64,000 bases of DNA from a virus (IMGVR_UViG_3300009129_001428:14915-78914); one strand, 5' to 3'. Positions 15,335-47,628 are shown, counted from the stretch's first letter. Translations and numbers: made by a program. Notes: generated by a model not told the origin, from the sequence alone.

Positions 15335-15492
15335 TTGCAGTAATTCGGGTCTTCGGCTCGCTTTCTTCTCATGTACTCCCGTTTTTGTTTGCGCCTACGG
15401 TCTAAATCCGCATCGTCATATTTCTTTCGGGCGCGAGCCTGAGCCTCTTTGCCTTTTTTGCTAGTCAGATATTTTTTTTGCCTTTCGCTCAT
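15322..15492 (-). CDS. small basic hypothetical protein
   Basis: Re-started at MSERQKKY; K/R-rich. Confidence 0.5.
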
Positions 15493-17917
15493 TGGCCTTT
15501 TTTGCCACAATAATATTGTTTTTAACGTAAATCTCAAAATTTTTATCCTTTGACAATAAAAGAGGGGCTAGGGCCTTTTCTATTCTGTCTTCAATTAGCC
15601 TTTTGATGGGCCTTGCTCCATCTTTCTTTTCAAGAGCTTCCTGGCTTAGTAAAGAAAGCGCTTTGGGCATCACCTTTAATTTAATCTCTGATTCAAGCAA
15701 GCGAGCTTTAAGCTTCTCTATCTCAATCCCTAGAATCTGTTTAATATGTTTTTCTTCAAATGTATTAAAAACAATAATCTCATCGAGCCTGTTGATGAAC
15801 TCTGGTTTAAAAAATGACTTTACTTCTTTCATTACTAAGTCTTTAGTGTCGGTACCTGCATCGAGGAAGCCCATGTTTTTCACTCCCTTTGCTGCGCTAG
15901 CTCCAATGTTACCAGTAAGAATAATGATGCAATTTGCAAAACTAGTTTCCCTCCCAAAATTATCAGTCAACTTTCCTTCTTCTAGAATTTGTAGTAACAT
16001 CTGACAGACGCTAGGGTCGGCCTTTTCTATTTCGTCGAATAAAATAACAGAATAAGGATTCTTCTTAACTTTTTCTGTGAGTTGGCCTCCCTCTTCATAG
16101 CCAATATACCCTGGGGAAGCTCCCACCATGCGAGTTGCAGAGATTTTTTCAGAATACTCTGACATGTCTAATTGAATTAGCTTACTGTCTCCCCCAAAGA
16201 CTTCCCGCGCTAAGGTTTTAGCCAAAAAAGTCTTTCCTACCCCACTTGTCCCTAAGCAAAGAAACGCTCCAAAGGGTTTGTTTTTTTGTTTTAAGGGAGT
16301 GTGGCCTCTTAATAGGCAGTTATATACTTTATCTAATACTTCGTCCTGCCCGATAATAATCTTTCTTAGCCGCTTGTTCAGGCTATGAAATCTCTCTTTG
16401 GACGCATTATATAAAGACTGCAGTGGCACTTTAGCCTTTTGTGAAACAGCTTCAAATACAGCATTCTCTTTAACTATTATTTTAGCCAGTTCTTTTTTGT
16501 TCGCCCATTCTATAAGTATCTCTTGATAACTTTCGAATAAATCCTGCTGTTTCTCCTTGATGGCCTCATTATTGGGATTTTCATCCTCCTCCATCATTAG
16601 CACCTCTATCTCCGCCTCAATATCTTTTGCGCTTTGGGGTCGTTGATAATGAAGAATCTTAGTCTTAGCTCCAGCTTGGTCCAGTAGGTCAATGGCCTTG
16701 TCGGGGAAGTTCTTGCCTCCCATGTACTTGTCCGACAGGTTAACGCAGAGTTCTAGCGCTCGGTCGCTATATTTAACCCCATGAAAATCTTCGTAGTGTT
16801 GCTTGATCCCTTTTAATATTTCTAAAGCTTCTTTTTTTGATGGCTCCTCGATTTTAACTGCTTGGAAGCGCCTGTCCAAAGCCCCGTCTTTAGCTATTGT
16901 TTTTTTGTGTTCCTCATGCGTGGTCGCTCCAATACAAACAAGCTCTCCCCTCGCTAGGGCTGGCTTGAACATGTTTGCAGCATCCATAGTGCCCTCTGCG
17001 CTTCCAGCGCCAACAATAGTATGAATTTCATCAATAAATAAAATGACATGGTCTACTTGCGAGACCTCTTTAATGATCTTTTTTAAGCGTTCCTCAAACT
17101 GGCCTCTGTATTTCGTACCCGCTATAAGCATCCCCAGATCTAGCCCATAAATAATTTTATTTAATAAATATTCTGGGGCCTCTCCTTGAACGATTTGTGC
17201 CGCTAAGCCCTCTACTATAGCGGTCTTGCCTACTCCTGGATCTCCAATTAGAATAGGATTGTTTTTCTTTTTCTGGCATAAAATCTCGCAAGTTTCTCTA
17301 ATTTCCTCAGTCCTCCCTACAACTTTATCTATTTTTTTATTAACCACTAATTCATTAAAATTAACAGCAAATTTAGGTAGATACTCTACTCGTGCGCCAG
17401 GCTCAGGCAGGCTCTCTAGGGGATCTTCTCTTGCGCCCATATATGGCGACTCCATTGTTTCTGAATCTAAATCAGAAAAGTGCCTTTTCATTGCGGCGGC
17501 GATAAGCTTGGGGTCAATGCCTGTTTCGACGGCATACACATTGATTGGCGACTCAGTGTACTGGGAGAGCGCTAAAAATAAATGCTCTAGGCCTATGTAC
17601 CCGTGCCCAAGCTTTTCTGCGCAGGCCGCAGCAATGGATAGAGATTGCTTGGCTGAATGAGAAAAAGCGAAAGTATCCGCCTCTTGTTGTGGAAAATTTT
17701 TATTCGCCTCAATTAAAGATAAGACATAAGTCTCTAGCGAACCCTCATCTATTTGAGATTTCTTCAGGATTCTTGCAATCGCTTCTGCTTTTATTGCGAG
17801 TACGCCATAGGCTAAATGATTAATGTCTATAACACTACTAGAGCTTTCTTTTGCTGTCTCTTTTGCTATTTCAATGGCTTCTTGCGCCCGAGGCGTAAAA
17901 TTAGGTACTGTCTCCAT
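15461..17917 (-). CDS. clpC: ClpC/ClpA-type Hsp100 ATP-dependent unfoldase
   Basis: Two N-terminal Clp repeats ([15 protein letters not shown]), NBD1 [14 protein letters not shown], short coiled middle domain, NBD2 [15 protein letters not shown], ClpP-docking loop MGF (15866-15874), [15 protein letters not shown]; start at METVPNF. Confidence 0.88.
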
Positions 17918-17929
17918 ATTGTATGTATT

Positions 17930-17935
17930 TACACT
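17930..17935 (-). promoter_or_regulatory. AGTGTA motif upstream of clpC
   Basis: 12 nt before ATG 17917; one of at least 11 copies. Confidence 0.55.
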
Positions 17936-20513
17936 ATTTAATATCTCCAAGTTTCATGTAGATTTGTTCGTCTATTACTGATATATTATCTAAGAATAAA
18001 ATGTCATCGCCCTTTCTCGCTGTAAAAACGACAATACTATCCTTTTTGGGGAGCTTATTCTTTTCTAAAAAGCGGTCTACCCTATTGTTTTGCTGCCATC
18101 TCCCATTAACCTGGCTTCTCCCATTTAAAAGCAGGCCATCGGTTGTTGCCGTTTCGTCTGAAACCGTAAACCTAATGTAGTCATTGCCATTGCGGCTCCT
18201 GCGTTTAATAACATCCTGCACTACTCCAATAAATTTTCCCCTATCTCTTTCTTCCATCTCTGTAGCATATAATAAATTATTTACATCTGCATCTCTAAAT
18301 ACTTCTGTCAGTTTATATGTATAACTGTAACCTAAAAGCTTTCTCTCAAAATACCAATTAGCGAACTGTTCGTGGCTCTTATTTTGCAAATAAATCTTTT
18401 TATAAGCCCCATACTTCTTCTTGAATGTCCCAAATCTTTTTTCTGGCATTAATATTCTTCCGTCGTCTCCGAGCATCTTTGTCCTCTGTGTTTCTGCTAT
18501 GCAATCAAGTAGTTGGTAGTTTTTCTTTTCTCCCATTTCTACAAAATTACGTTTCTCTCGGTCAGTTAAAATATTAAAAGCCTGCGCTTCTAATACCAGC
18601 AATGACCTGCTCCCGTTCGAACACGAAGACATCGCTCCTGCTTGAATTAAGGCAGACAAGGTTCCTATGTTTAAGCCCGCGCTCTTGGCTGTTAAAAATA
18701 TATCATATTTATTTGACCTCTCAGAATCCCTAAAATCTTTTAAGTTTTGTAATGATTTTTCGCTAATACCTTTTATGCTATTCAGCCCATATCTTATATT
18801 TTTGCCTTCAATAGTAAAATCCATATCGGACTTGATTAAGTCTGGAGGTAAAAGTTTAATGTCAAAATAAGGCAGCTCTTGAGAGATCTTGCATATCTCG
18901 TCATATGGAGAAGGCTCAAACTTGGTCATTTTTAATAATGACTGAAAAAATTGTAATGGATATTTGAACTTTAAATAGGTCGTCCACGCCGCTAAAGTGG
19001 CATATGATATGGAGTGACTTTTATTAAAAGAGTAATTAGCGCTATCCTCTGCTACTTTCCATAGTACCTCTCCAGCCTCATGAGGGAAATTATTTTCTAT
19101 AATCTTTTGTTCGATTTTGCTTTTCCATGTAGACATCTCTTCCACCTTTTTCTTCCCAACAATACGCCTAAGTTGTTCCGCTTCATCGAGGCTGAAGCCA
19201 ACTTTTACCGCCATTTTCATTAATTGCTCTTGATAAAGAGGAATCCCCCCTGTATACGAGAGAATGTCGTCAAAAAATGGATGCACGCTTTGGGACTCTC
19301 CAGTAGAAGCGAATTTTACGAAGCTATCCATAAAGTCTAGTGCTCCTGGCCTTCCGATTGCTACTACTGCGCTCAGCATTTCTAGGTTGTTGGGCTTAAC
19401 TTTCCGACAAACTTTAAAATTTGTATCTGCTTCTATCTGGAAAAGCCCATGCGGGCATCTTAGTCCATCCCTCAAGGGCTTAAAAACCTCCTTCTTCTCA
19501 ACAGAAATAGAGTCTACGTCTAAATCAAGAGTGTTACAGACATCATAGATCACGCTTAAAGTTCTTAAGCCTAATATATCAAATTTAACCATGAGTTCCG
19601 CAACCCAGTTCATGTCGTAGCCGCTAACTAGACCGCCGTCGTTCGTGCTTTGTAGCGGACAAATTTCTTCTAATTTTTGAAATGAAATAGCAATGCCTGA
19701 GGGGTGTACTCCTGTATTCTTATTTAGCCCCTCAAGCTTCTTCGCTACTTTGAAGGTGGCGGGATTATCTGTTACCCAATCCTGAAACTTCTCGCTCTCT
19801 TCGTTTGCTTCGTCGAGGGGCGCAACTTTACCAAATTTTTTAGGAATATAATCGCTCACAATGTTTACGTCTTGTTCCGAGTAGTTCCCCACGATCTTGC
19901 CGCACTCTTTAATGCAAAGTTTGCTGCTTAACGTATTTAGGGTTAAAATATTACAAGTCCTTGCTGGATACCTGCGCTCAATAAAAGAAACTACCTCCTG
20001 CCTGCGCTCATAAGAAATGTCATTGTCGATATCTGCTAGAAGCGACCCGTCAAGATAGGTTACTCCGTCTCCTTCTATTTTTCTTGCCCTGCTTTTGCTT
20101 ACGAATCTTTCGAAATATAAATCATATTTTACTGGATCAATATTAGTGACTTCAATTAAATATAATACCAAAGATCCTGCGGCCGAGCCTCTCCCTGGCC
20201 CCGTAGGGATGTCGTTTTCCCCGCAAAAATTATGTACATCCCAGTTTAATAGTATGTAGTCTACAAAACCGAGGTCATCTAGGATGTCTAGCTCTTGCTT
20301 TGCTCTCTCGTAATAAGACTCTTTGTTTTTAAAATTATTAATACCCCGCTTCTTTATTCCTTCCCAGCAAAGCCTTTTCAAGAAATCAAAGTTAGAAATC
20401 GTAGATTCCACGCCGAGCCTTTCGTAAAACCTGTCTTCTATTTTGATCTCTGGAAGCCTAACGCCAGGAGGGCAAGCGCCTTCATAATGAGTAAAGCCTT
20501 CAAAGAAACTCAT
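17934..20513 (-). CDS. dnaE: DNA polymerase III alpha subunit, catalytic part lacking the PHP domain
   Basis: [63 protein letters not shown]; starts after the usual PHP region. Confidence 0.9.
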
Positions 20514-21148
20514 ATCTCTACCTCCCATATCTGCCTACGAAATATTTGATAGTTCATTTTTACATCGTAAATCGCATCGTGCAATTTCCTTTGGTCAAAT
20601 TTAAGATCGTAAGATTTACATAAAGCGGTAATGCTGGCCTTCATTCCTCTTTGTCTAAATGAAGTTAGCTTGTACTGCCAAGACAAAAGCTTATCCTTGG
20701 GCGGTTTAATGTCTTTGTGAATAGCCTTCGCTATGCATAAGGTATCAATCAGATTGTTTAGGTATGAATAATCTGGCTTCTTGCCTAAGGCTCTACGAAA
20801 AATAGAATGAATATAGACATCAAAGCCTAGCAGATTGTGCCCGAGCTTAATATAGGCTGGGTCATAAAGGTATCTTTCCATGAATTCCAGTACTTTTTCT
20901 GGCTCAACCGCCTCCTTGTCGTATTTTTTTCTATTAAATCCTGTAATTTTCGCCGCATCTGCCGAGACCTCTAGGTTGTCCCACTTAATTAAAAAATCAT
21001 ATTCTTTTTTTACTTTGTCTCCTTCGCATAAAATAAACCCCAATTGCCAAGGCTTGTTGTTCTTTCTACATAGATTGAGGCTGCAGGTCTCAAAATCAAA
21101 TACCATATATTTTTGTTTATTATTAAATCTAAGCAATTGTTCTTTCAT
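20510..21148 (-). CDS. DEDDh 3'-5' exonuclease (Pol III epsilon-like)
   Basis: VFDFET, GHNLLGFD, IDTL, HDAIYDV. Confidence 0.85.
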   Translation of the reverse strand: MKEQLLRFNNKQKYMVFDFETCSLNLCRKNNKPWQLGFILCEGDKVKKEYDFLIKWDNLEVSADAAKITGFNRKKYDKEAVEPEKVLEFMERYLYDPAYIKLGHNLLGFDVYIHSIFRRALGKKPDYSYLNNLIDTLCIAKAIHKDIKPPKDKLLSWQYKLTSFRQRGMKASITALCKSYDLKFDQRKLHDAIYDVKMNYQIFRRQIWEVEI

Positions 21149-21155
21149 CTTTGGT

Positions 21156-21184
21156 ATTTTACTATATTCTCTCTTGGCAGTCAA
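21156..21184 (-). promoter_or_regulatory. sigma70-like promoter (leaderless)
   Basis: TTGACT (21179-21184) - 17 nt - TAAAAT (21156-21161) - 7 nt - ATG 21148. Confidence 0.6.
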
Positions 21185-21207: not shown

Positions 21208-21648
21208 ATGAACGAAATTAGTATCATTACCGCCGTAGCAATCTGTATTTGTGGGGCTTTCGTTACTGGCTCTGTGGCATTCGTTATTAAATCCTTAATG
21301 AATGATATTAAACAGGCAGAAGTCACAGCTGAAAAGGGAATGGAGTTTGTCAGGTCTGAAATATTTGGATTAAGAAAGTCTCTAGACGCTTTTAAGTCCG
21401 AAGAGAGGCATAAGGATGATGAGCTAAAGGTGGCAATAGATCAAACCAAAAAAGAATTAAGAGAGGAATCTCGAGCAGATAGATTATATGTCGATAGCAC
21501 AAAAAAAGAACTAAAAGAAGAAATGCATTATTATTGGAGCAAGGCAGAAAATGTTTTAGAGGCTCGGAGGCAAGACGTATATATGATACATAAAAAAATC
21601 GACACCATAAAAGACGAAACCCTAAAAAAGCTGGACGACCTTAAGTAA
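21208..21648 (+). CDS. membrane-anchored coiled-coil protein
   Basis: Start MNEISII, 11 nt after TGTGTA; N-terminal TM helix then coiled coil; one of two convincing plus-strand genes. Confidence 0.65.
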   Translation: MNEISIITAVAICICGAFVTGSVAFVIKSLMNDIKQAEVTAEKGMEFVRSEIFGLRKSLDAFKSEERHKDDELKVAIDQTKKELREESRADRLYVDSTKKELKEEMHYYWSKAENVLEARRQDVYMIHKKIDTIKDETLKKLDDLK

Positions 21649-22372
21649 CCACCTCTTTTCTCCAGCTTTCAAAAGAAAATTGATCGCTGCCTTGATGGTC
21701 GAAATTAGGGCAATCTAAAGTTCTGGACTTAAACCCGCGATTGCAGATGCATTTGTAGGACTGGTATGCCGAAAAGTCCTTTTCTGTCGGGTAGTAAATG
21801 CTTTTTGCTTGTTGAGTGGTATATTTATTTTTAGAGCAATAAGATTCAATCTCCTCTTTTACTAATCGGTCAAATGGCAAGTTATTGTCCTCAATCAAAA
21901 ACACAGGAGATGTAAATGAGAAATCGGGAGTACAAGTAGAAAAGTGCATCGTGTTATTAAAAATAAAAGAATCATAAAAGGGGATTGCTAGCTTCAAGTC
22001 ATCGTCCGACCAAACCTCTCTAAGAAAATTCTCATCCAAAACGCCGCCCGTTTCTACAAATGCATTAGAGTATATTAGGTTTAGCTTTTGACAGCCCATC
22101 GAGTTTTTTGCAAAGACAATAATCTTATGCTTGCAATCTTCTGATTGGGTTGGATTGTTGGAAATCTCCACCCTTAAACCAAACCTAAGTTTTCTCCCCT
22201 CTTCATCAAAAGCTTTCCTGGCTTCTAAAAAACCAATTAAAGAATCTTCAACTAAAACAACCTCTTCTAGCTCGGCGTCTCGAGCTAGGGAAAGAATACT
22301 CCGATCCGTGTCTTGTTCAAGCGTAAGAATACTGCGACCGATTGAATAATGGGATTTAAATAAAGGAATCAT
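21641..22372 (-). CDS. stand-alone PHP domain of DnaE
   Basis: LFKSHYSIGRSIL (H-x-x-YS motif), KLRFGLRV, FAKNSMGCQKL...YSNA. Confidence 0.8.
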   Translation of the reverse strand: MIPLFKSHYSIGRSILTLEQDTDRSILSLARDAELEEVVLVEDSLIGFLEARKAFDEEGRKLRFGLRVEISNNPTQSEDCKHKIIVFAKNSMGCQKLNLIYSNAFVETGGVLDENFLREVWSDDDLKLAIPFYDSFIFNNTMHFSTCTPDFSFTSPVFLIEDNNLPFDRLVKEEIESYCSKNKYTTQQAKSIYYPTEKDFSAYQSYKCICNRGFKSRTLDCPNFDHQGSDQFSFESWRKEVVT

Positions 22373-26751: not shown

Positions 26752-27162
26752 TTATAGTAAAACTCCTATTTTTTTGAAATAATCTTTAGTCAACTCGTCA
26801 ATAGAATATATCTCTATCAAGCGAATGTCATTCAAGTCGCAAAAGGACTGTTTATCTTGGTCTCTGCGCAGTTGGTTTATGTAGTTATATTTATTGTTCC
26901 CGTGAAAAAAGGGAGTATATTCTGTGTGCTGCCTGCCTTGGACCTCTATTGCGATTTTCTTGTTTGCATTATAGAAATCTAAAGACATTTTTGTGCCTGC
27001 GACTGGGAACTCTTCAAAAACTACGTGTTTTTGCCAAAAGTCTTTTAAAAAATCTTTCGTAGCTTTTTGTATCTTGCTTCTGCTCTTTGCCTCCCAGTTG
27101 ATGAGGTATTTCTTCGCCCTTGGGACACTGCGGGTTGCCCCCATCAGGGTTATGAACTTCAT
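26752..27162 (-). CDS. Vsr/DUF559-like endonuclease
   Basis: LDFYNANKKIAIEVQGRQH...RDQDK...LIEI. Confidence 0.75.
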   Translation of the reverse strand: MKFITLMGATRSVPRAKKYLINWEAKSRSKIQKATKDFLKDFWQKHVVFEEFPVAGTKMSLDFYNANKKIAIEVQGRQHTEYTPFFHGNNKYNYINQLRRDQDKQSFCDLNDIRLIEIYSIDELTKDYFKKIGVLL

Positions 27163-28253
27163 TTGATTGTTTTAACCTCTTCTTTAATTAACTCGAGAAG
27201 AAACTGACAAAAATCTGTATTATTTTCTAAAAAATCTATGAGCTTCTGCTCTCCTTGAATCTTCTCAAAGAACTCGACCTTGGCTTTTTTGCATCTCTGC
27301 ACAATTTCTTTATCTAGGGAAATCCATGCGCCCTTTTTTTCCAGAAAGCCCCATATGTAGCACATGTCTATTACTTCCTTTTCTAGCCAGACTGATTTAC
27401 CGTTTGTCCTCCCGTACCGAATCGGGTATCTTACCGACGCTCCTGTCTTCTCGTTTACGCTTTTCCTAAAAACAATCTTACAGATATGCCCAATTGGGCT
27501 CCCCTTGTCTTCTAGCTTTGCCGCAGTTGGGTTCTCAAATAAAATGTCACTATTATAACGATCTTGAAACTCAAGAATAAAATTCGCATAGTGTTTAATC
27601 GCATTGCCCCCTGCTTGTTTGGTCTTTGGCCCTCCTCTAGCCGCATATGGATTCGTTGCTACTTCTACTCTCACTTGAGAGGTTAGGATCATCATGTGGT
27701 TTAATTTAATAATAGGCAAGACCATCTTCTTTAAAAAGACAGATGTTATTAAGGCTCCTCCTGCGACTTGTTCGCTGTCTTCAAAAGGCTTTTCGTAGTC
27801 ATTTTGTCTACATAGTGCATCAACGCTGTCTACGATAAACATATACTTCTTGTCGTCCTCATTTTCTTTAACCAACATTCTAATAAGTTCAAAAACTTTT
27901 TCAAAAACATTACAATCAAACTTGAAGAATCTTTCTTCGCTCGAGTCCACTCCCGAGCGAGCTACCATTTCATTACTGAGCCGACCCTCGCTCTTGATGT
28001 ATACAACCATAGCTTTCTCGCCAAAGTGATCCTGAAAGTTCTTCGCTACGGCAAGAGCGCAAGACGTCTTTCCTCCTTCGTTTACTCCTGTAAAACGATG
28101 TACTCCCGCTGGAAATCCCCCTCCTAGGGACAAATCTAAATTAAGGCTGCCCGTTGGGATTTTATAGTCTAGCTCCTTATAGTCATTATAATGGAAGTTC
28201 TTGTTATTCTTGTCGCTAAGAAACGCTTTTATTTGCTCTAATGTTCCACTCAT
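27159..28253 (-). CDS. recA: RecA-like recombinase
   Basis: IPTGSLNLDLSLGGG, GVNEGGKT, FIVDSVDAL, TSQVR, GGNAIKHYA; start at MSGTLEQ. Confidence 0.85.
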   Translation of the reverse strand: MSGTLEQIKAFLSDKNNKNFHYNDYKELDYKIPTGSLNLDLSLGGGFPAGVHRFTGVNEGGKTSCALAVAKNFQDHFGEKAMVVYIKSEGRLSNEMVARSGVDSSEERFFKFDCNVFEKVFELIRMLVKENEDDKKYMFIVDSVDALCRQNDYEKPFEDSEQVAGGALITSVFLKKMVLPIIKLNHMMILTSQVRVEVATNPYAARGGPKTKQAGGNAIKHYANFILEFQDRYNSDILFENPTAAKLEDKGSPIGHICKIVFRKSVNEKTGASVRYPIRYGRTNGKSVWLEKEVIDMCYIWGFLEKKGAWISLDKEIVQRCKKAKVEFFEKIQGEQKLIDFLENNTDFCQFLLELIKEEVKTIK

Positions 28254-28254
28254 T

Positions 28255-28596
28255 TTATTCTGATAAGAAATCGCTGATTGTTCTCTCTGTTTTTTTAATA
28301 TTTGCATCTTGTCCTATTTTTTGTTCTTCTAGTTGTGGCGCGGAATACTTTGGCACCACATAGTTATAATCTAAATACTTTTTCTTTACAAACTTTTTCC
28401 AGTTGGGGCTAGCTAATATAGCTAGGCTATCAAACTTTTGATAAAAATCTACAACGCTCCAAAAGCATTGGTCTGGAAATTCCTTGAGGAATCTATTCAG
28501 AAGCGTCATTTCTTTTTTCCAGAAAGCCCTCTTATTGGCTTTTGGTTCATTAATATGCCTCTGTATTATTTGTCTTTTATTTAAGCACTTCTTCAT
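28255..28596 (-). CDS. hypothetical protein
   Basis: Re-started at MKKCLNKRQ (the longer track ORF runs into the tmRNA). Confidence 0.6.
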   Translation of the reverse strand: MKKCLNKRQIIQRHINEPKANKRAFWKKEMTLLNRFLKEFPDQCFWSVVDFYQKFDSLAILASPNWKKFVKKKYLDYNYVVPKYSAPQLEEQKIGQDANIKKTERTISDFLSE

Positions 28597-28676
28597 GTAT
28601 GTCGTCCACTGTCCTCTCGCTTCGTTTTTTATTTTTTTTAGGATATACGATATTCCCGAAAAAGTCAAGAAGGAAA

Positions 28677-29110
28677 TGGTGGAGATGGCGGGAGTCGAAC
28701 CCGCGTCCTTGTATAGATCCATAATCTATCTCGTTACAAGTTTGTCCTGCTTTTTTATGTTGTTGCAAACTCAACATTCAATTTCATTTATTTGCCTCCG
28801 AATACTCAGCGGACTACAGTTTGTGAATATGAATAACTTTTTCTGTTTTCTGCAGATGTCGTCCTCGCATTCCTTTATCTGCGTCCCAGATGCAAGGGGT
28901 AGCTTATGCTACAGCAGCCAGCTGACGCGCAACACTCTTACGAGCAGCAACCTTGCGGGTTGCAACCTTCTTAGAAGGATTGAAGCGGTCAAGCAGACCA
29001 TTTACAAGTTTAGATTTGGCACTTATATAAGCCTTGGGCTTTTTAAGGAGCCAGCCCACTCCTACTTGCAATAAAAAATTTAGCTAACAAGTCGAATCCT
29101 TGTCATCCCC
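28677..29110 (-). ncRNA. ssrA: tmRNA (434 nt)
   Basis: 5' GGGGATGACAAGGATTCGAC; 3' T-arm GCGGGTTCGACTCCCGC then CATCTCCACCA; acceptor stem GGGGATG/CATCTCC with G3.U70 Ala determinant and encoded CCA; internal ATAAGT-GCC resume site and tag ORF. Confidence 0.95.
28904..29020 (-). other. tmRNA tag reading frame, 38 codons: AKSKLVNGLLDRFNPSKKVATRKVAARKSVARQLAAVA*
   Basis: Manual translation from resume codon GCC (29018-29020) to TAA (28904-28906); stop lies in a GTAGC-ATAA-GCTAC hairpin. Confidence 0.8.
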
Positions 29111-29133
29111 ATATCAAATAACTAAAGTTAGTT

Positions 29134-29139
29134 TACACT
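29134..29139 (-). promoter_or_regulatory. AGTGTA motif upstream of the tmRNA
   Basis: 23 nt upstream of the mature 5' end. Confidence 0.5.
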
Positions 29140-29141
29140 AA

Positions 29142-30065
29142 TCACTTAGCTTTGTCAAGCTTGCGTTCTGTTTTAATTAGAAAAGGATACTTGCTCACTT
29201 CTGTGCCCCCGCCCTCTCCCGCGTCGCTGATCCCGCTTTTAATTCCACTATCTTCTACCGCAATCTTTTTAAGGTTCTTTAGGGAGGGCGCTTCAATATT
29301 AGGGTCAATAGCCCATAGTACATCGTTTTCTTTCGCCCAGCGCTTCATCCGCCGAATTGGAACTGTTAAATTAAAACCTTCTCCTGCTCCGCGCACAAGC
29401 ATACCCACATAGCGGCCGTCTGTAAGAAAAACCCCGCCTCCTGAGGAGCCTGGGAATGCGGTCACTGTAGTTTGGTCGTACTCTTGCTTGCCATGAATCC
29501 TGCCGACTTGCGACACAATGCCCGTGGTCATAGAGTTCGCTCCCATCTGGCCCAATAAAGACCCTACATGGAAAAGGCTTGTGCCAATAGGGACAATAGC
29601 ATCGTCTGCATTAAGATAAAATCGCGCGCTTTCCTTAGAGTAGTCCTTGGCTCGTACCATAAGCAATGCAAGATCATGGCCGTCATCAGCATTAGAATAT
29701 TTAATAACCATTGCATCCATTTTGATTTCGCCCACACGCCTTCCTTCAGAGACAAGTTCCTTTACTATCTGTGCGTCCTGAAACTCTACTACTTTACGAG
29801 GGCGCCCGCTCTCGTCAATTACATCTCGTACAGTTCGAAGGTTATCGACTACATGGGCCGCCGTCCACACAAAAGTGACCTCGCTCCCCTCGATTTCTCT
29901 AACGATCAACACCCCTGACCCCTCGGACTTGCTCCACTTCCCTTCGGATTTAATAGTAACCGAAATGTCCTGAAGAAAATTGGCAACACGCTTTCTGTTC
30001 TTCAAGTCTTCTGAAAAGGTGGGGGTTGCAACTAAAAATGCCAAGAATAATGTAATGTACTTCAT
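29142..30065 (-). CDS. secreted trypsin-like serine protease
   Basis: Signal peptide; catalytic triad WTAAHVV / HDLALL / PGSSGGGV. Confidence 0.88.
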   Translation of the reverse strand: MKYITLFLAFLVATPTFSEDLKNRKRVANFLQDISVTIKSEGKWSKSEGSGVLIVREIEGSEVTFVWTAAHVVDNLRTVRDVIDESGRPRKVVEFQDAQIVKELVSEGRRVGEIKMDAMVIKYSNADDGHDLALLMVRAKDYSKESARFYLNADDAIVPIGTSLFHVGSLLGQMGANSMTTGIVSQVGRIHGKQEYDQTTVTAFPGSSGGGVFLTDGRYVGMLVRGAGEGFNLTVPIRRMKRWAKENDVLWAIDPNIEAPSLKNLKKIAVEDSGIKSGISDAGEGGGTEVSKYPFLIKTERKLDKAK

Positions 30066-30070: not shown

Positions 30071-30099
30071 ATGATATGTGAGGGTTTCGCTATTTTCAA
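30071..30099 (-). promoter_or_regulatory. sigma70-like promoter (leaderless)
   Basis: TTGAAA (30094-30099) - 17 nt - TATCAT (30071-30076) - 5 nt - ATG 30065. Confidence 0.55.
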
Positions 30100-31631
30100 A
30101 ACTTTTCTATTTTTGTTTTTATACTAGAAACAATTCTTTTAAAAGTGGAGGCTCCTGCGGCTTTATTTTCTTGAGACAACTTTCTGTTTGCTGAAATTTT
30201 TCTATAATTATCTCTGATCAAACCTCTGGTTTTTCTTAATCCCGACTTAGCTTGATATAAAAAACTATTTAGCTTTTGGTTTTGGCGATATAACTCAGTA
30301 GGCTCCTGATTATTTATTTTTTTTTTATCGTTTTCGTAAAAGTCTATAATGCCTTTGATCTCGTCTTTAGTGGGAAAGTCTTCGATGTTAGGCGCTCCTT
30401 CGCTTAATTCGTTAAGCTGTGAATGGACCGTCTCCAGTTCTTCGATTGGCGCAAAGTCTTTACGGTTCTGGAGCTCCGTAATTTTTGACTCTAGGTCATC
30501 TACTTTTTTAAAAAAAGAATCTATATCAAAATCTTTAACTTTTTCATATAGTCGTGTTTGTGTTTTTTTATTAAGAACCGCACGCAATCCTGAAACCCCC
30601 GCAAGAACTAATAGTACTGCTAAGGGATCGAAGACAAAAATCAATACAATTATTATAATTCTTACCGCTTTATCTAAAGCTATCTCGCTTGCTCCTAGGT
30701 CTTCAAATAATTTAGCAATGTACTTAACTGGCCCGACTTCTGCCTCTAGCGTACGAACCTTCTCGTCAAAAGTAATTTTGCTAACTTCAAGTTGATTAAT
30801 CTTATCTGTTGCACCATTAATTAGTTCATTGTATTTTTCTATCTCTTCTTTGGCCTCTGAGTGGCCTCCTCCTCTTGCCTGCTGAAACTCTGCTATTTTT
30901 GTGCGGGATTCTTTAGTCTCTATGTCTGCCTTTTCTCTGTGAGCGCTAATCTTGCCCTCTCCTTCTTTAATGCTAGACTGAATGGACACACGCTCTTCTG
31001 CTTGCAATTCTTTAAGTGCTTGTAGTTTTTGTTTTTTATTAGAAAATAAACCACCTGATTCCGATTCTAGAGTGGCAACTGCTGTATCGAGTTCTCTGCG
31101 TCTCTCGGCTAGCTGATCAATTCGATCTTGTTCAAATTGAACGTCTTTATTTAATTGAGAATTTATTTGCTCGATTCTTTTCTCTTCTCTCTGTATATCA
31201 ATTAAATTTATATCCTTAGAGGATGTTAATCTTTTTTCTTCTTCAACAATATAAGATTCTTGTCTTGTAATAAATTGTTTCTCGCGCAAAATTTTCTCGT
31301 CTATTTGTTCTACCGCTGCCATTTCTTTTTCTGTCAAATAGCTATGTTCAATATGGGCTTTAGATAGGAACCCGAAAATACCCATACTGGTTATAAGCAT
31401 CAGGACAACCACTGCGGCAGTAAGATAGTACTTCATCAGTCTATTCGCTTCTCTCCAGTTTTGATGAAGCCAAACCGCCGAAACAATTTTCCCTACTTCT
31501 AATACTGAGCCCATGATAATGACAGACCATGCAGCGCCTGGAAACATGGTAGCTAGCCCTAAAATACTAAAATAAGCACCTGTACCTGAGATACTTAACG
31601 CTGATAATAAAACTATGAAATAAAAAATCAT
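30096..31631 (-). CDS. multi-pass membrane protein with long coiled coils
   Basis: Start MIFYFIV; AYFSILGL, VLEVGKIV, SMGIFGFLSKAH, EAEVGPVKYIA, FVFDPLAVLL; common large-phage family. Confidence 0.7.
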   Translation of the reverse strand: MIFYFIVLLSALSISGTGAYFSILGLATMFPGAAWSVIIMGSVLEVGKIVSAVWLHQNWREANRLMKYYLTAAVVVLMLITSMGIFGFLSKAHIEHSYLTEKEMAAVEQIDEKILREKQFITRQESYIVEEEKRLTSSKDINLIDIQREEKRIEQINSQLNKDVQFEQDRIDQLAERRRELDTAVATLESESGGLFSNKKQKLQALKELQAEERVSIQSSIKEGEGKISAHREKADIETKESRTKIAEFQQARGGGHSEAKEEIEKYNELINGATDKINQLEVSKITFDEKVRTLEAEVGPVKYIAKLFEDLGASEIALDKAVRIIIIVLIFVFDPLAVLLVLAGVSGLRAVLNKKTQTRLYEKVKDFDIDSFFKKVDDLESKITELQNRKDFAPIEELETVHSQLNELSEGAPNIEDFPTKDEIKGIIDFYENDKKKINNQEPTELYRQNQKLNSFLYQAKSGLRKTRGLIRDNYRKISANRKLSQENKAAGASTFKRIVSSIKTKIEKF

Positions 31632-31632
31632 T

Positions 31633-32319
31633 TTATGACAACTTAACAATACACTTTCTGGAGGCGCCCCAATACCAAATCTCCAGTGGATTGTAAGAAG
31701 CGGAGAGAGTAGACCCAGGAACGACACCATTATAAGTGAGGTCAGTACCTGTATTATTTCGCAAATAAAAAGCTCTTTGGTGAGAGCCTGCTAGATAGTA
31801 ATAGCTATTGGTCGCTTTAGAAAGATTGCCAGGAACCGCTGCTTTAATGTTGGCCCCATCAAGGTTGCCGCATGGTTCCGTGCAGGGAGGGCCCCATAGA
31901 TTAGAAACCAAATCCTCATCGAAATAATCTCCGTCTAGAAAGTCCTCAATCGTAGCAAGGCGCGCAATATTAATTCCCACTCCCGCATAATCAGCTATCA
32001 TTTGGGCTTCAACTGCCGCAGGATCTACGGTTCCCGCCGCATTACCGAACTCATAGCTTGCGCTCGTCACAGCTAAATCTCCATATTTTATCGATAAAGC
32101 ATAAGGAGAGATGGGGCCGTCAGCAAAAAAAGCTACTCCCGAAACGGGACCAACGAAATTCGAGCACTGAATGGGAGAATAAAGCTCTGTGGGGCCAACG
32201 TCGTCAACTTGTACTCCATCTATACTAACCTTTCCCTCTTTGAGTATAGCGGTAATAGATAAAGGTTGGGAGCTCCCAATCCCGCGAGTCTCATTCAGAG
32301 TTGACAAATAGGGCTTCAT
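31633..32319 (-). CDS. hypothetical protein, paralog C of a tandem family (extra C-terminal domain)
   Basis: Shares LxITxxLK...IDG...GP..LYSPI.C..F...G.xAxF with its two neighbours. Confidence 0.65.
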   Translation of the reverse strand: MKPYLSTLNETRGIGSSQPLSITAILKEGKVSIDGVQVDDVGPTELYSPIQCSNFVGPVSGVAFFADGPISPYALSIKYGDLAVTSASYEFGNAAGTVDPAAVEAQMIADYAGVGINIARLATIEDFLDGDYFDEDLVSNLWGPPCTEPCGNLDGANIKAAVPGNLSKATNSYYYLAGSHQRAFYLRNNTGTDLTYNGVVPGSTLSASYNPLEIWYWGASRKCIVKLS

Positions 32320-32971: not shown

Positions 32972-33895
32972 TTATAAATACTTCGATATTGAACTCGGTA
33001 ATACGTTTTGTGCTCTAATTCTTACCTTCTCTGCTAAATAGGGGTCTCTCTTGGAGCCGCCTACTAGGTGGGTATATTTTATGTTATTGGAACCTCTGTA
33101 AACGAAGGCTCCCTCTTTTTTAAAGTCTAATTCATTACATATCCTATAGCCTGGGGGCGGTTCGAGAAGTGGTACAAATATTTTGTTCTTTTTAAAAGCT
33201 AGATGAGAAAATAACCACTGTTCATAAATTGCATTAAAGCTGTCTCCCATATCGTGGTTGCGAATATATTTCATATTGGATTCGTCTTGCAAAATGTCGA
33301 AAACTTTAGAGCAATAATATTGTATAAAATTTAAGTCTGTACCTCCAAATATACCAAAATTGGGAGTAAGGACAGGGTTATTTGTTTTATCCCTGTCAAA
33401 GCCTATGAGCCACATTATCTTTTTAAAAAAAGAAAAGTATGGCGAGAAGCTGTATCGAAGGGGGGAGTTTAATATCTTGCGAAAGCAAAAATTGTAAAGC
33501 GGCATCTTGTATTCTACGCTTTGGCAAATCAAACCCTGACTTAAAAACTCTAGAGGTGGCCGCTCCCATAGGAATACATCGTTGTCTACATGTAAAAACG
33601 AATCTTCCTGCAGGGAATAGGTTTTTATTTTGGGATAAGCCCACAGGCTGGGCGGTATATTAAGTTCGTGTAGTTGTTGCAGGCTTGAATCAACTTCGTC
33701 AAACAAAGGCAAAAAGCGTTTTAGGTCTTGCAGCCCCTGCCTGTCCGTATATAAAAATACTTTTTTAAACCAATGACGAGCACAAAAAGCTGATAAAGCA
33801 AAAGAGGATTCAAAATCTTTTTGATTATTGAATCCACAATACCTATTAAGGTAATTCGGTATAGACCAATGGGTAAAAACTGCCGTATGAATCAT
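32972..33895 (-). CDS. DUF6734-like / glycosyltransferase-like protein
   Basis: FTHWS, LYTD, WAYPKIKTY, FLHVDNDVFLW, NFGIFGG, IYEQW. Confidence 0.6.
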   Translation of the reverse strand: MIHTAVFTHWSIPNYLNRYCGFNNQKDFESSFALSAFCARHWFKKVFLYTDRQGLQDLKRFLPLFDEVDSSLQQLHELNIPPSLWAYPKIKTYSLQEDSFLHVDNDVFLWERPPLEFLSQGLICQSVEYKMPLYNFCFRKILNSPLRYSFSPYFSFFKKIMWLIGFDRDKTNNPVLTPNFGIFGGTDLNFIQYYCSKVFDILQDESNMKYIRNHDMGDSFNAIYEQWLFSHLAFKKNKIFVPLLEPPPGYRICNELDFKKEGAFVYRGSNNIKYTHLVGGSKRDPYLAEKVRIRAQNVLPSSISKYL

Positions 33896-34911
33896 TAAAA
33901 ATCATCCTCTAGCGCCCCGCTTTGCTGGTATTCCCTCACCCTTCTTTCAAAAAAGTTAGTCATTGCTTGGGTGTCTACTACTTCCGAAAGCCATGGAAAT
34001 GGATTTTGATCAGAAGGAAAACGATAACTAAGACCAATAGCCTCCATCCTGCGGTTGCCAATGTAATGCATATAGTCTACAAACATGTCTGAATTTAAGC
34101 CAAGTATACCTGTCGGCAAAACATCTTTAGCGTAGTTAACTTCTAGTTCTACTGTTTTCTTCATGTGTTCAGTGAACTCTTCCTGAATAGCTTTTGTCCA
34201 TATTTTTGGGTTTTGATCTATTAGGGTATTAATAAGGTAAGTGCCGAACTCGATGTGTAAACTCTCGTCTCTAAGAGTATATTTGATCTGGTCAGAAACC
34301 CCCTGTAATTTATTTTGCCTTCCGAGGGCGAGGAGCATCGCAAAGCCCGAAAAGAAAAACGTTCCTTCGCAAATTATGTAGTAGGTGAATAGGTTTTTAA
34401 GCAATTCTTTTTTGCCTGTCAATGTTGTGCTAGTGAAGTCAGGGCGATTTAGATCACTAGTAATCTCCATTAAAAATTCATCCTTAGCTTTAATAGAGGG
34501 GACAGTTTCGTAAGCCCTGTATACTTCGTCAATATCTAAGTCAAGGCTGTCGCAGATGTATACGATAGTAAGGTTGTGTAGGCTCTCTTCAAATGCCTGT
34601 CGTAAAATGTACTGCCTGCATTCAGCATCAGTAATATATTTAAATGCAGACATCAATAAATTGTTCCCCACCAACGACTCGCTTCCCGCAAAAAATCCTA
34701 AACAACGCTTTACCAAAAGCTTTTCATCGTCAGATATTTCTCCGCCCTTCCATTGCTTAATATCGTCTTGCATTGAAATTTCAGTTGGCATCCAGTTGTT
34801 GGCGCAACCTTTTAGGAAAAGATCCCACGCAAACTTATGTTTATGAGGAAGGATACGATTTACTGAAGCGATATCTTCAGTGATTAAATCAGATGTTTTT
34901 TCGTCTTGCAT
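33895..34911 (-). CDS. nrdB: ribonucleotide reductase beta subunit, class Ic (R2c)-type
   Basis: Colinear with C. trachomatis NrdB as recalled; ligands E78, E109, H112, EGTFF, RDESLH; Ile116 at the radical-Tyr position; C-terminal FFERRVREY. Confidence 0.93.
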   Translation of the reverse strand: MQDEKTSDLITEDIASVNRILPHKHKFAWDLFLKGCANNWMPTEISMQDDIKQWKGGEISDDEKLLVKRCLGFFAGSESLVGNNLLMSAFKYITDAECRQYILRQAFEESLHNLTIVYICDSLDLDIDEVYRAYETVPSIKAKDEFLMEITSDLNRPDFTSTTLTGKKELLKNLFTYYIICEGTFFFSGFAMLLALGRQNKLQGVSDQIKYTLRDESLHIEFGTYLINTLIDQNPKIWTKAIQEEFTEHMKKTVELEVNYAKDVLPTGILGLNSDMFVDYMHYIGNRRMEAIGLSYRFPSDQNPFPWLSEVVDTQAMTNFFERRVREYQQSGALEDDF

Positions 34912-41134: not shown

Positions 41135-41968
41135 TTAAGTGTCCGTTTTATATTTAATAATATTTGATTCTGGACAAAAAAACTTTGCCCTCCCTTCTGG
41201 AATTACAGTTTTCCCTTTTGTTTTGTAAAGAGTTATTGCTTCGGAAAACCCTGATACCGATGCAATAAAAAAATCGCTCTCTATACATGTTTGAAACTGC
41301 AGAAGAGTGCTCGTGGCGGATTTTTCACTAGGAATATATTTTATAATGCCATTTTTGTAATTAAAAAATTTATATACATCTACAGCTTCACATTTTTCAT
41401 TTACATACTGACCTGTCCAGTCTGCGTCAGAATATATGTAAAGTAAGAAGTTTTGAATATTATAAGTCTCTAGTAAATAGTCTAAAGCATTTTTAAAATA
41501 TATGTCTGGCAATAATCTATCTTCCATGGGATGTTCACTACCTTCCCATTTTCTATTACATGCAATATCTCCCCTCCTGATAGACATAGAAATTGTTGTT
41601 ACGTCTTTAGAGCATTCTTGCTGTACCCGCAAGACTCTGTTTTTATAACAAGACAAAAGATAAGGTCTCGTTAAGGAAAAGTCTTCACACACGTTGTCGC
41701 AGCTATCCTGAGGGTGATATTTAACTCTTTCTATCTGTTTGGGAAATGACTTTTCTAATTCTCCGCGCATCTCCGAGCAGTTTGGTAAGCCTAATGCAGC
41801 CTCTAATAAGCCTCGCTGCCCTAATCCATGCCCTAATTGCATTAAAGAAGGAATAAAGCACTGATTATCGCTGATCGCTTGATTTAAGCCACTGTTATAG
41901 CTAAAGAGCGTGTGGCCTATGCCCGCCCCTCGCACTATATTATCATAAAATAAATATTTTGTTTTCAT
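41135..41968 (-). CDS. GT11-like alpha-1,2-fucosyltransferase-like protein
   Basis: GIGH, SIRRGD (HxRRGD-like), YIYSD, FIASVSGFS; start at MKTKYLF. Confidence 0.6.
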   Translation of the reverse strand: MKTKYLFYDNIVRGAGIGHTLFSYNSGLNQAISDNQCFIPSLMQLGHGLGQRGLLEAALGLPNCSEMRGELEKSFPKQIERVKYHPQDSCDNVCEDFSLTRPYLLSCYKNRVLRVQQECSKDVTTISMSIRRGDIACNRKWEGSEHPMEDRLLPDIYFKNALDYLLETYNIQNFLLYIYSDADWTGQYVNEKCEAVDVYKFFNYKNGIIKYIPSEKSATSTLLQFQTCIESDFFIASVSGFSEAITLYKTKGKTVIPEGRAKFFCPESNIIKYKTDT

Positions 41969-41972
41969 AATA

Positions 41973-42950: not shown

Positions 42951-43025
42951 ATATTATTCAAAATAATTTTTAACATCATTAATATGAGGACACCATTGAG
43001 AGGCTTCGTTACAATACCATTGCTT

Positions 43026-45021: not shown

Positions 45022-45518
45022 TAAACAAGATATAAATTTGATACATAAAAATGAGGTTTATTTACTCCAATCAGTTTAATTAATCTAGCTTTCGTCTCGT
45101 CAAATTCAGTATTATAAAAAGCCTTTAAAGGGATAGCTACCTCGCATTCTTCTCCTGATGTAATTCCACTAAGCTGAGAAATTTCCACTTCCTCCGAAGT
45201 CCTTTCTTTTTCATCTATAAAAGCCACCCTTAAGCCTACACCATCTTCCTGGTAGAAAGTAAACTTTACCTCGGAATACTGCCTAATGTCCTGAGAGGCC
45301 CACTGGGCTTTATCTAGGGCTAAGACCCCGCAAAACCAATCGTCTTCCGACTCTGTATACTTGAGTGCGAGTCGAGGTACTCCAGCTATGTTCTCCACGG
45401 GGACCTTTTCTGGCTCACTTGTCTCTAAATTACAAGACCAGCTTGCATCTACTACTTTCTTTAGGAACACCCTAGGAGAAAAGATGTTTAACATTTTAGT
45501 TTTATTTGAAATTAACAT
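45021..45518 (-). CDS. galactose-binding-like (CBM11/CIA30-like) domain protein
   Basis: DIRQYSEVKF.F....LRVAFID......VAIPLKAF....FD..KAR.I pattern. Confidence 0.45.
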   Translation of the reverse strand: MLISNKTKMLNIFSPRVFLKKVVDASWSCNLETSEPEKVPVENIAGVPRLALKYTESEDDWFCGVLALDKAQWASQDIRQYSEVKFTFYQEDGVGLRVAFIDEKERTSEEVEISQLSGITSGEECEVAIPLKAFYNTEFDETKARLIKLIGVNKPHFYVSNLYLV

Positions 45519-46927
45519 AGCTCTAATAATCCGTCGTCATTTATGTACGATATTTTTGTAATATTTTTATGTTTATGTTTGTTCGTTGAGAAATAATCAA
45601 AAGGCTCAAGTCCTTCCGACCGATACGTTTCTCCTTTATAATCGTTCTTGTTTAGGCTTTTTAAAGAAATAAATTTAATTTTTTCAAAGCCATTTAGAAG
45701 ATGCATGCCAATGTTTTTTAACGTCAACTCTTGGTCTAGTCTTTGGGTTTTATTTCCTTTATGCATTATTGGATAATAATTACAATCAAATAAATCCTCT
45801 CTGATCTGCTTGTTGCTTTTTACTAAATCTATAATTGCAATATCACAATCCATGTGCCTATCTATAAAATGAGCAAGCTTTTTTATATTAAATTTAGATC
45901 CTGTGTCATTGTAAATAATTACTCCAGTTTTCTTTTCTACAGATAGTAGGTTTATATCGGTTAGGCCGTTAGCTTTAGCCTCCGAAAATAAACTTTGGTT
46001 ATACTGGCCTCCTATTGTTAAGCTATTTATATCCCACTCCTTCGGGTGATCAATATGATAAACATCCTTTATGTTTTCGGTAGTCGTATGCAGTTTCTGG
46101 CAAATGCCTGAAAGAGCTGTGTCCCAATGGGGCTCACCTATAATAAAATCAGGAATATATTCTCTAATGCTCAGGTATGTTTTCTTTTTAAACGCAAATG
46201 CATCTCTGCCTGTGGTATAAGGCCATGACTCCCCCTTAAATAAATCCTCTAATGATTTGGCAGAGGGACAATCTCTCCTGATGTACTCTACTATGTCTGA
46301 GTTGTCTTCTAGTAGGTTGTTATAAAAATCATTAGTTATGGGGCAATCTAGATTAGAATATACAATATAATCACTGTCTGAGGCGAGCTCTGCTGCGGCG
46401 TCCAACATGTCCTTGAGAAATAAAAAGTCTTTAGTATGCTGGATTGTATTGGCCGCATTCCGAATTAGTATTCTAGTCTTCCATCCAGGCTTTTTAAGGG
46501 CTACGCTTGAACATCCCAAAAGCTGCACGCAACTGGATGACTTGGCCGCCTGCTCTATGGACTCAAGCGTTAAAGAGGTCCTGTGGTATAGTGACTGGTT
46601 TTTTTGGGCTGGAATAAATAAATTAACTACATGAATAATTTTAGAAGCCTTTTTAGAAGAAGAATCTATCTTGAGGCTGGGCGGAGCGACGTCATCACGA
46701 GGGATTTCTAGTTTGTGGCTGCGTTTTGCAGTAGCGCTCACCTCATCTTCAGAATAATTCAATTTCTTGCCAGTGGATATGGCAACCCCTTGAATTTTCG
46801 AGCGAAGAACTTTGTCTCTATTGATGATGGTCTCATCAATAATGTTATTTATATTAAAAAGGAAGCTATGCCACCAGTAAGCCGCCGCATTTAAAATGCG
46901 CGATACGAACCTCCTCGCTGCCCGCAT
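45512..46927 (-). CDS. glycosyltransferase-like protein
   Basis: YIVYSNLD, GRDAFAF, IGEPHWD, YHIDH; lies in the glycan island. Confidence 0.5.
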   Translation of the reverse strand: MRAARRFVSRILNAAAYWWHSFLFNINNIIDETIINRDKVLRSKIQGVAISTGKKLNYSEDEVSATAKRSHKLEIPRDDVAPPSLKIDSSSKKASKIIHVVNLFIPAQKNQSLYHRTSLTLESIEQAAKSSSCVQLLGCSSVALKKPGWKTRILIRNAANTIQHTKDFLFLKDMLDAAAELASDSDYIVYSNLDCPITNDFYNNLLEDNSDIVEYIRRDCPSAKSLEDLFKGESWPYTTGRDAFAFKKKTYLSIREYIPDFIIGEPHWDTALSGICQKLHTTTENIKDVYHIDHPKEWDINSLTIGGQYNQSLFSEAKANGLTDINLLSVEKKTGVIIYNDTGSKFNIKKLAHFIDRHMDCDIAIIDLVKSNKQIREDLFDCNYYPIMHKGNKTQRLDQELTLKNIGMHLLNGFEKIKFISLKSLNKNDYKGETYRSEGLEPFDYFSTNKHKHKNITKISYINDDGLLELC

Positions 46928-46929
46928 TA

Positions 46930-47628
46930 TTATAGCTCCCCTCTGATTTCATCAATCAGGCCAAGGTTGAGCGCCTCATCCGAAGAAATCCACCAATCTT
47001 TTCTATCCCAATTTCTTTTTATCTTAAGCCTGGTTAGGTTAGATCTTTTTTCAAAAATATCTAGAATGCGAGCTTCTATCCTCTTTATCCACGCAGTATG
47101 ATCCTCAATTTCAAATGTCTTACCCATGATCCCAAAGGCAGCTCTATGGATCATCATCCATGCTTGATGACCCATCCATCGGCGGTCGCCTGCCTGCAGG
47201 AGTATCCCTGCCATAGAAGCCGCCATTCCTAGTGAACCCGTAGTTACTTTATGCCCTCGGGCCCGCAGCTCCTGTATAAAATCAAACAAAACAAACCCAT
47301 CAACAATGGAGCCTCCGCCTGACGAAAAAATAATTTCTATCTCGCAATTTGGGTGCCTCCTTGACCACTGTGTAAGTTTTTGCATGCAATCATTAACATA
47401 GGTTTTGTCTACTACAGTATTAAACCTATAAATCATATTCTCTTTGTCGTCAGCCTTTTCCCTCCTCCATTCCTGGTCCTTTTTCTCTGCTTCAAGATTT
47501 TTTAATTTGGCAGAGCTCTCGGCGCTAAGTGTTTCTGCCTCTAGCTTTCGGATCTCCGCTTCGATTTTACGAGTTTCTGCTTCGATTTTACGAAGTTCTT
47601 CTTTGCTTTTTTTCTTTTCTTCGCCCAT
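46930..47628 (-). CDS. clpP: ClpP-family serine protease with N-terminal heptad-repeat extension
   Basis: IFSSGGGSIVDG, catalytic Ser in AASMAG, His in MMIH, Asp in RKDWWISSDEA, GLIDEI. Confidence 0.88.
   Translation of the reverse strand: MGEEKKKSKEELRKIEAETRKIEAEIRKLEAETLSAESSAKLKNLEAEKKDQEWRREKADDKENMIYRFNTVVDKTYVNDCMQKLTQWSRRHPNCEIEIIFSSGGGSIVDGFVLFDFIQELRARGHKVTTGSLGMAASMAGILLQAGDRRWMGHQAWMMIHRAAFGIMGKTFEIEDHTAWIKRIEARILDIFEKRSNLTRLKIKRNWDRKDWWISSDEALNLGLIDEIRGEL
47532..47594. repeat. 21-bp tandem repeat encoding RKIEAET-RKIEAEI-RKLEAET
   Basis: ttcgattttacg recurs at a 21-nt period within clpP. Confidence 0.7.

Follow-up and report, generated by a model that had tools for sequence, protein, structure and literature searches.

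Introduction

Trans-translation in bacteria relies on transfer-messenger RNA (tmRNA) with SmpB and on an ssrA tag that is read by ClpXP or ClpAP. To our knowledge, the tmRNAs and Clp genes carried by phages have been recognized by annotation and never tested. Phage tmRNAs are recorded in Bacillus phage G, in the Bxz1-group mycobacteriophages, and in huge phages (PMC4131195, PMC7162821), and Bacillus phage G has ClpX and ClpP besides its tmRNA (PMC12484599; the tmRNA in PMC4131195). Our literature searches returned no paper on a phage tmRNA together with ClpC and none on the phage ClpP-like proteases (no tested function for any member of that group). Here we analyze 64,000 nucleotides of viral DNA (IMGVR_UViG_3300009129_001428:14915-78914; "the window" below, with positions counted from its first letter) in which a tmRNA gene, the gene of a ClpC-type Hsp100 unfoldase, and that of a ClpP-fold serine protease occur together. 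A preliminary description had read the three as a closed, co-regulated circuit of ribosome rescue and proteolysis. On balance, they are probably separate acquisitions with separate roles and not one module: ClpC is not co-inherited with the other two genes, the ClpP-like protein is without the docking pocket and the axial loops, and the AGTGTA motif proposed to co-regulate the circuit is not shared by its three members.

Results

Co-occurrence of the three genes

Viral loci were gathered by protein search (65 with the ClpC-like query and 80 with the ClpP-like query), and co-occurrence was established by whole-record searches of 44 related IMG/VR viral contigs, 3 of them near-complete. The tmRNA is a core gene of the clade, scoring over the Rfam cut-off in 18 of the 44 records and in all 3 near-complete genomes. 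The ClpP-like protein is found in very many relatives at 57%–78% identity, with exactly one ClpP-family gene in each of the five longest relatives. A ClpC-like gene, on the other hand, is present in 6 of the 44 records and in none of the three near-complete genomes, which do have the ClpP-like gene and the tmRNA; no AAA_2-type ATPase scores over the cut-off in the five longest relatives. A first scan gave six relatives of ClpC above 58% identity, to which the whole-record search added two more, at 49%–51%. Since the ClpP-like gene and the tmRNA are clade-wide and ClpC occurs in few members, the first two are core genes and ClpC is accessory to one branch. Co-occurrence in related phages, named in the preliminary description as one test of its circuit, thus fails for ClpC. 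The window itself has no smpB, as had been stated, and the search for SmpB in the 44 related records (the near-complete genomes among them) also gave none, so that host SmpB would be needed, in agreement with the earlier view that SmpB must come from outside. In the window, 11 kilobases (kb) separate ClpC from the tmRNA and 18 kb the tmRNA from the ClpP-like gene, with 29 kb between ClpC and the ClpP-like gene; they are never adjacent.

The ClpP-fold protease and its docking surface

The ClpP-fold serine protease (46930–47628, minus strand; identified with Pfam, PHROG, AlphaFold2, and Foldseek) has 232 residues, with a 57-residue N-terminal helix. It matches Pfam CLP_protease with 99 bits, and the triad S138, H161, and D211 is invariant in 38 relatives. 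An AlphaFold2 model built with 38 sequences (predicted local distance difference test, pLDDT, 85.8) shows a ClpP body plus one helix at residues 2–58 (pLDDT 86–93). The body superposes on Bacillus subtilis ClpP (PDB 3kti) with a Foldseek template modeling (TM) score of 0.88 and a root-mean-square deviation of 2.3, and the handle region is kept. The fold and the Ser-His-Asp triad of the ClpP described at this position therefore stand, but the name "ClpP" is too strong: the protein scores 72.1 bits on the clpP equivalog TIGR00493, for which the cut-off is 308.6, and lies below all ten NCBIfam ClpP models. With PF00574, the canonical ClpPs of other ClpC-bearing huge phages give 175–259 bits versus 92–104 in this clade. 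The best PHROG is 94, "head maturation protease" (9e-52), with an "ATP-dependent protease" PHROG at 9e-12; against NCBIfam NF045542 (ClpP-related head maturation) the score is 86.4 bits, with a cut-off of 120. Searches of a protein atlas and of viral folds returned generic viral ClpP clusters, the phage ClpP-like proteases forming a mostly viral cluster of 366 members.

For the pocket comparison, Escherichia coli ClpP from the annotated K-12 record served as reference. Its hydrophobic pocket for the IGF/LGF loop, which we take to be formed by Y60, Y62, F82, I90, M92, F112, L114, and L189, is for the most part replaced in the ClpP-like protein: Y60 becomes E, Y62 I or V, F82 E, I90 G, M92 L, F112 W, and L114 G, and L189 falls on a gap. 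Where canonical ClpP has its N-terminal axial loops, which control access to the pore and touch the ATPase, the first ~65 residues of the ClpP-like protein form a charged repeat. The altered pocket, the axial helix, and the low scores argue together against docking of a Clp ATPase by the known mode. The protease would thus act without a Clp ATPase.

Upstream motifs

The heptamer TAGTGTA is present at 17930–17936 and at 29134–29140. Before ClpC, AGTGTA (17930–17935, minus strand) stands 12 nucleotides ahead of the start, across the last codons and the stop of dnaE; it is kept in four ClpC loci (L002–L005) and absent in two others (L001 and L006). Before the tmRNA, AGTGTA (29134–29139, minus strand) overlaps the −10 part of a sigma-70-like promoter site, TTGACA-17-TAAACT (29130–29158, minus strand; 10 of 12 matches), and the arrangement TTGACA-N13-AGTGTA is kept in L168, L169, and L170. 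The earlier statement that the motif is not of the sigma70 class is thus wrong for the tmRNA. Over the whole window, AGTGTA is a real motif of upstream regions: there are 14 copies on the coding strand versus 6 on the other, and 10 of the 14 fall in the 6% of the sequence that is intergenic, mostly 12–21 nucleotides before an ATG (binomial P about 5e-10). Besides ClpC and the tmRNA, at least 10 genes are preceded by it, many in the glycan region.

Before the ClpP-like gene, AGTGTA is found in none of 12 relatives, and the window has AATGTA there, overlapping a TATAAT box. AATGTA itself is at chance level in the window (24 copies on the coding strand versus 23 on the other, 3 of them intergenic). 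The motif class assigned to all three genes consequently holds for ClpC and the tmRNA and does not extend to the ClpP-like gene.

The extended form WWWAGTGTAW occurs on the minus strand of the window at 58173, 58058, 57280, 55459, 54611, 53299, 32963, 29139, 26749, 17935, 13830, and 11658; with the motif 12–21 nucleotides before many starts, transcripts beginning at it would have very short leaders. In one relative (L078), a protein with a Sigma70_r2 domain is encoded near the ClpP-like gene (12192–12920), and it might be the factor that reads the AGTGTA-class motif.

The tmRNA and its tag

The tmRNA gene is of the one-piece type and lies at 28677–29110 on the minus strand (Rfam RF00023 and ARAGORN). 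The match to RF00023 (116.7 bits, cut-off 47) covers model positions 1–374 without truncation and ARAGORN agrees with it, so that the gene is complete, as had been described. In the acceptor, read from the sequence, 5′ GGGGAUG is paired to CAUCUCC-ACCA; G3 stands opposite U70, and the end is CCA. The tag reading frame (28904–29020, minus strand) opens with the resume codon GCC at 29020 and runs over 38 codons to a TAA. The resulting tag of 38 residues is basic (10 Lys or Arg, isoelectric point about 12), starts with AKSKL, and ends with QLAAVA. ARAGORN calls the tag in a different frame, which is unconserved and inconsistent across the clade; the conserved GCN frame was used instead.

Two tag families occur in the clade, oppositely charged and both long and conserved (loci L146–L157 and L168–L173). 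The basic 38-residue tag belongs to the window and its closest relatives (L168–L172, from genomes G001–G005), and ClpC is found in G001–G004. The acidic tag, of 30–35 residues, has a conserved EADEILAKFG core, ends mostly with LAA, VAA, or LAV, and is found in members without ClpC. The tag frame of the window is kept in five close relatives, with changes mostly at the third codon position (13 of 20 between the window and L168). In the second tag family, the substitutions number 243 at third positions versus 114 and 106 at the two others. This third-position bias in both families indicates that the tag peptide is translated and under (purifying) selection.

The tmRNA, probably charged with alanine, would act with host SmpB, alanyl-tRNA synthetase, and EF-Tu to free ribosomes stalled on broken mRNAs during infection, and it would add a long phage-specific tag to the rescued products.

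The ClpC-type unfoldase

The class I Hsp100 unfoldase of the ClpC type (818 residues; 15461–17917, minus strand) was assigned from the alignment with B. subtilis ClpC, from Pfam, and from PHROG. Its Pfam domains are AAA, AAA_lid_9, AAA_2, and ClpB_D2-small, with a weak Clp_N (31.8 bits), and it matches PHROG 4871 (phage ClpC-like proteins) at 1e-226. Among solved structures, B. subtilis ClpC gives the best match (596 bits, about 40% identity): residues 17–800 align unbroken to residues 5–783, including the N domain and the short M domain, whereas the alignments to ClpB and Hsp104 break in two at the M domain. The protein is below the NCBIfam cut-offs for ClpB (725 vs. 1232) and ClpA (681 vs. 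993), and the output contained no ClpC model. Walker A (GDPGVGKT and GTSGVGKT), Walker B (ILFIDE and VILFDE), and the pore loops (KYRG and GYIG) are all intact. The relatives align from residue 11–12 of the open reading frame (ORF) started at TTG, which favors the ATG at 17917 as the start.

In the second AAA+ module, an MGF tripeptide (M682–F684; 15866–15874, minus strand) occupies the position of the ClpP-docking loop, which in B. subtilis ClpC reads VGF. Pfam, this alignment, and the checked translation bear out the Hsp100 ATPase with MGF in NBD2 that was first noticed here. A tripeptide of the form (M/V/L/I/F)GF is kept in 15 viral ClpC-like proteins, which argues that the ClpC-like proteins are built to dock on a ClpP. 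No ClpP-family ORF was found within 10 kb of ClpC in the 65 viral loci examined, and no second, canonical ClpP is coded in the 64-kb window, so that the likely partner is host ClpP. ClpC would then most likely dock on the canonical ClpP of the host through the intact (M)GF loop, or it would act alone as a remodeling chaperone.

The ClpC gene comes directly after that of DnaE and is followed by a resolvase-like nuclease, with a DnaQ-like exonuclease also nearby; no adaptor gene was recognized near it in the window. The gene, accessory to one subclade, is lodged within a block of replisome genes. The best cellular ClpC matches, from Firmicutes, Bacteroidales, Patescibacteria, and Treponema, are all at 37%–46% identity, which points to an old viral lineage and indicates neither donor nor host.

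Among the six ClpC-like copies of the related records, three (L161–L163) are interrupted: G004 at 26848–29267, G018 at 14232–16616, and G041 at 2121–4511. One copy is split into two ORFs and two have a single in-frame TAA; decay of the gene, an error in sequencing, or read-through of the stop codon could account for the interruptions.

A possible capsid role for the ClpP-like protease

Maturation of the capsid or removal of the scaffold is the leading guess for the ClpP-like protease, with about as much chance of being right as of being wrong; another ATPase-independent role is distinctly less probable. The capsid role is suggested by the best PHROG being "head maturation protease," by the core-gene status, by the lack of an S77/S78 protease, and by the proximity to TerL and to the head block. 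No Peptidase_S77 or S78 match was obtained in five long relatives, although the very divergent structural genes make this null weak; the Gp23 and HK97 capsid families likewise gave no match in the long relatives. The ClpP-like gene is 4–5 kb from TerL in four of the five long relatives, and in L102, L103, and L116 it lies about 3 kb upstream of a block with p499, a cement-like protein, and a protein of the size of a major capsid protein (p382).

In G010, the region 144000–163999 (L258) contains TerL and ORFs of 679, 608, 499, 196, and 382 residues, the 608-residue ORF with a weak carbohydrate-binding match. A weak match of the 196-residue ORF to a phage cement protein is the sole marker of a head module, and ten ORFs downstream of TerL in L258 gave no PHROG match. 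L258 is likely the packaging and head block of the clade.

Genome context and neighboring genes

By its gene content, the window is the part of a large uncultured tailed phage genome that is devoted to replication and metabolism. All large ORFs are on the minus strand, and the GC content is 35%–41%. Related IMG/VR contigs reach 158–178 kb, with an estimated completeness of 91%–100%. A megablast search with the ClpC–DnaE region against 50,697 phage records gave no match, which indicates that, in DNA sequence, the window has no near relative among cultured phages.

The replication genes code for a RecA-like protein, a DnaB helicase, a primase, a PD-(D/E)XK nuclease, a PHP-like ORF, a DnaQ-like exonuclease, and a DnaE core. 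The alpha subunit of DNA polymerase III is apparently split, with a weak PHP-like ORF at 21641–22372, the DnaQ-like exonuclease at 20510–21184, and the DnaE core at 17934–20528, which begins at the NTPase domain. Both ribonucleotide reductase subunits and many sugar-modifying enzymes are also encoded. The two reductase genes are 24 kb apart (small subunit at 33895–34911, large subunit at 59003–61447), with the ClpP-like gene and an island of glycan and sulfotransferase genes between them. The small subunit gene of L069 and L070 comes directly after the ClpP-like gene, an order that suggests that the window has undergone an insertion or rearrangement.

Directly upstream of the tmRNA is the gene of a Trypsin_2-type serine protease (29142–30065, minus strand; Pfam PF13365, 51 bits). 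This protease is present in all three near-complete relatives and adjoins the tmRNA in G010 (69479–71327). It is also found 1–2 kb from the ClpP-like gene in 19 loci (of L066–L145); in L069 and L070, which belong to the closest relatives, no tmRNA lies between the trypsin-like and the ClpP-like genes. Just upstream of the trypsin-like protease of the window, an ORF of 544 residues (30096–31730) has weak tetraspanin-like and ERM-helical matches, below the cut-off, and probably codes for a membrane protein that is coiled-coil in part.

Discussion

The evidence for three separate genes is of three kinds: the separate inheritance of ClpC, the docking surface of the ClpP-like protein, and the distribution of the upstream motif. 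The ClpP-fold gene here is probably unrelated to the tmRNA and ClpC. Several observations weigh against such a separation or against parts of it. Most of the 44 records are fragments, 11%–50% complete, and absences there are weak evidence, so that the case for ClpC not being general rests mainly on the three near-complete genomes. In other viral lineages (G045, G046, G047, G057, and G058), the tmRNA and ClpC-like genes are 5–11 kb apart, a proximity that may reflect a true link in function between the tmRNA and ClpC. The pocket residues were read from an alignment at 24% identity, with the segments anchored by invariant motifs, and W, I/V, and L remain at three of the pocket positions, which makes a non-canonical docking mode possible. 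As for host ClpP as the partner of ClpC, the closest cellular ClpCs, distant as they are in identity, are spread across many phyla and name no host ClpP. The capsid role has its own difficulties: in the loci examined the ClpP-like gene is nowhere between portal and capsid genes, its neighbors in the window are glycan genes, and the nearest cultured homolog, gp119 of Mycobacterium phage Nebkiss (39% identity), is surrounded by replication genes, and the head module there, which includes a scaffold, is 60 kb away.

The other readings differ in which of the three genes they join. In the strongest form, close to the preliminary description, the phage ClpC joins the ClpP-like protein in a private ClpCP that degrades the phage-tagged proteins, with one promoter class driving the three genes. 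The window has all three intact, and G002 and G003, the closest relatives, also have them together; the docking loop is present in ClpC, and the ClpP-like protein keeps the fold, the handle region, the triad, and the three hydrophobic pocket positions mentioned above. Yet the ClpP-like gene is also kept in genomes without any Clp ATPase, five of the eight pocket residues are now Glu, Gly, or gap with a long helix in place of the axial loops, AGTGTA is absent before the ClpP-like gene in the window and in 12 relatives while standing before at least 10 other genes, and the three genes are scattered at 11 and 18 kb from each other; a private ClpCP is accordingly very improbable. A little more credible, but still improbable, is a pairing of the tmRNA with the ClpP-like protease in which host ClpX, ClpA, or ClpC would unfold the tagged chains for the protease. 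Both genes are clade-wide (including the three near-complete genomes), they are 3–9 kb apart in L081, L107, L118, and L120, and the trypsin-like protease links both neighborhoods; a host unfoldase, however, would need the canonical pocket and the axial loops to dock, and neither is conserved; in G010, 68 kb separate the two genes.

A third possibility leaves the ClpP-like protein aside: the phage ClpC, on host ClpP, would recognize the phage's own basic tag and clear the products of tmRNA rescue. The subclade with ClpC has the distinct basic tag ending with AAVA and the relatives without ClpC an acidic one, ClpC-like genes and tmRNA are within 5–11 kb of each other in the five genomes cited above, the docking loop is conserved, and AGTGTA precedes both genes. 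But the association of tag type with ClpC goes back to one evolutionary event and so has no statistical weight, the tmRNA is absent from three of five near-complete huge phages that bear ClpC, ClpC is interrupted in half of its copies from related records, and no adaptor gene is recognized near ClpC. We regard this arrangement as unlikely, although it is the most serious of the alternatives. More doubtful still is its evolutionary extension, that the gain of a full-length ClpC by the subclade went with a change of the tag, from long, acidic, and LAA-ending to long, Arg/Lys-rich, and AAVA-ending, and that ClpC on host ClpP would read the new tag. If true, the freeing of stalled ribosomes and what becomes of the rescued products would both be under phage control, without any need for host ClpXP and SspB. 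Finally, the tmRNA could be a decoy or sensor, for example soaking up host SmpB, and not a tagger: molecules with the tRNA-like domain only have been discussed for mycobacteriophage DS6A (PMC4131195), and no phage SmpB was found. The RNA is, however, full length with all model regions matched and its tag frame has the third-position bias, so that we give this idea hardly any credence.

A tmRNA, a ClpC, and a "ClpP" in one genome do not by themselves make a pathway. What the clade does offer, with a core tmRNA and long, selected tags in two charge families, is a lead to the role of phage tmRNAs.

Compared with bacterial trans-translation, the window has in common a one-piece tmRNA, the alanine identity elements, a GCC resume codon, and a small hydrophobic tag end; it differs in being virus-encoded, without an SmpB gene, and with a 38-residue tag that ends with AAVA and not LAA. 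In the ClpC of B. subtilis, E32, which we take to be one of the two N-domain glutamates that bind phospho-arginine, aligns to an Asn in the window ClpC (read from the alignment). With the ClpC–ClpP systems of B. subtilis and Staphylococcus aureus (with MecA or McsB), the window ClpC shares the N domain, two AAA+ modules, the short M domain, and a VGF-type loop (PDB 3j3s, 6em8, 9gi1), but no recognized adaptor gene is nearby and the window codes for no canonical ClpP. The ClpP-like protein is close to the phage "ClpP-like protease" group (Nebkiss gp119), with 35%–39% identity over 91% of the length, N-terminal extension included, whereas, set against the head maturation proteases of NF045542, it is below the cut-off and has no C-terminal fusion to a scaffold or capsid protein.

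The tmRNAs of the Bxz1-group mycobacteriophages and of huge phages are phage-borne like that of the window and have no demonstrated role (PMC4131195, PMC7162821); the window belongs to a different clade, with tags in two long conserved families. Bacillus phage G is, like the window phage, a large phage with its own tmRNA and Clp genes, in which any functional link between them would likewise be putative. In phage G, ClpX and ClpP are adjacent, a head maturation protease is annotated separately, and the tag has 13 residues, whereas the window phage has a ClpC-type unfoldase, an aberrant ClpP-family gene 29 kb away, and a tag of 38 residues.

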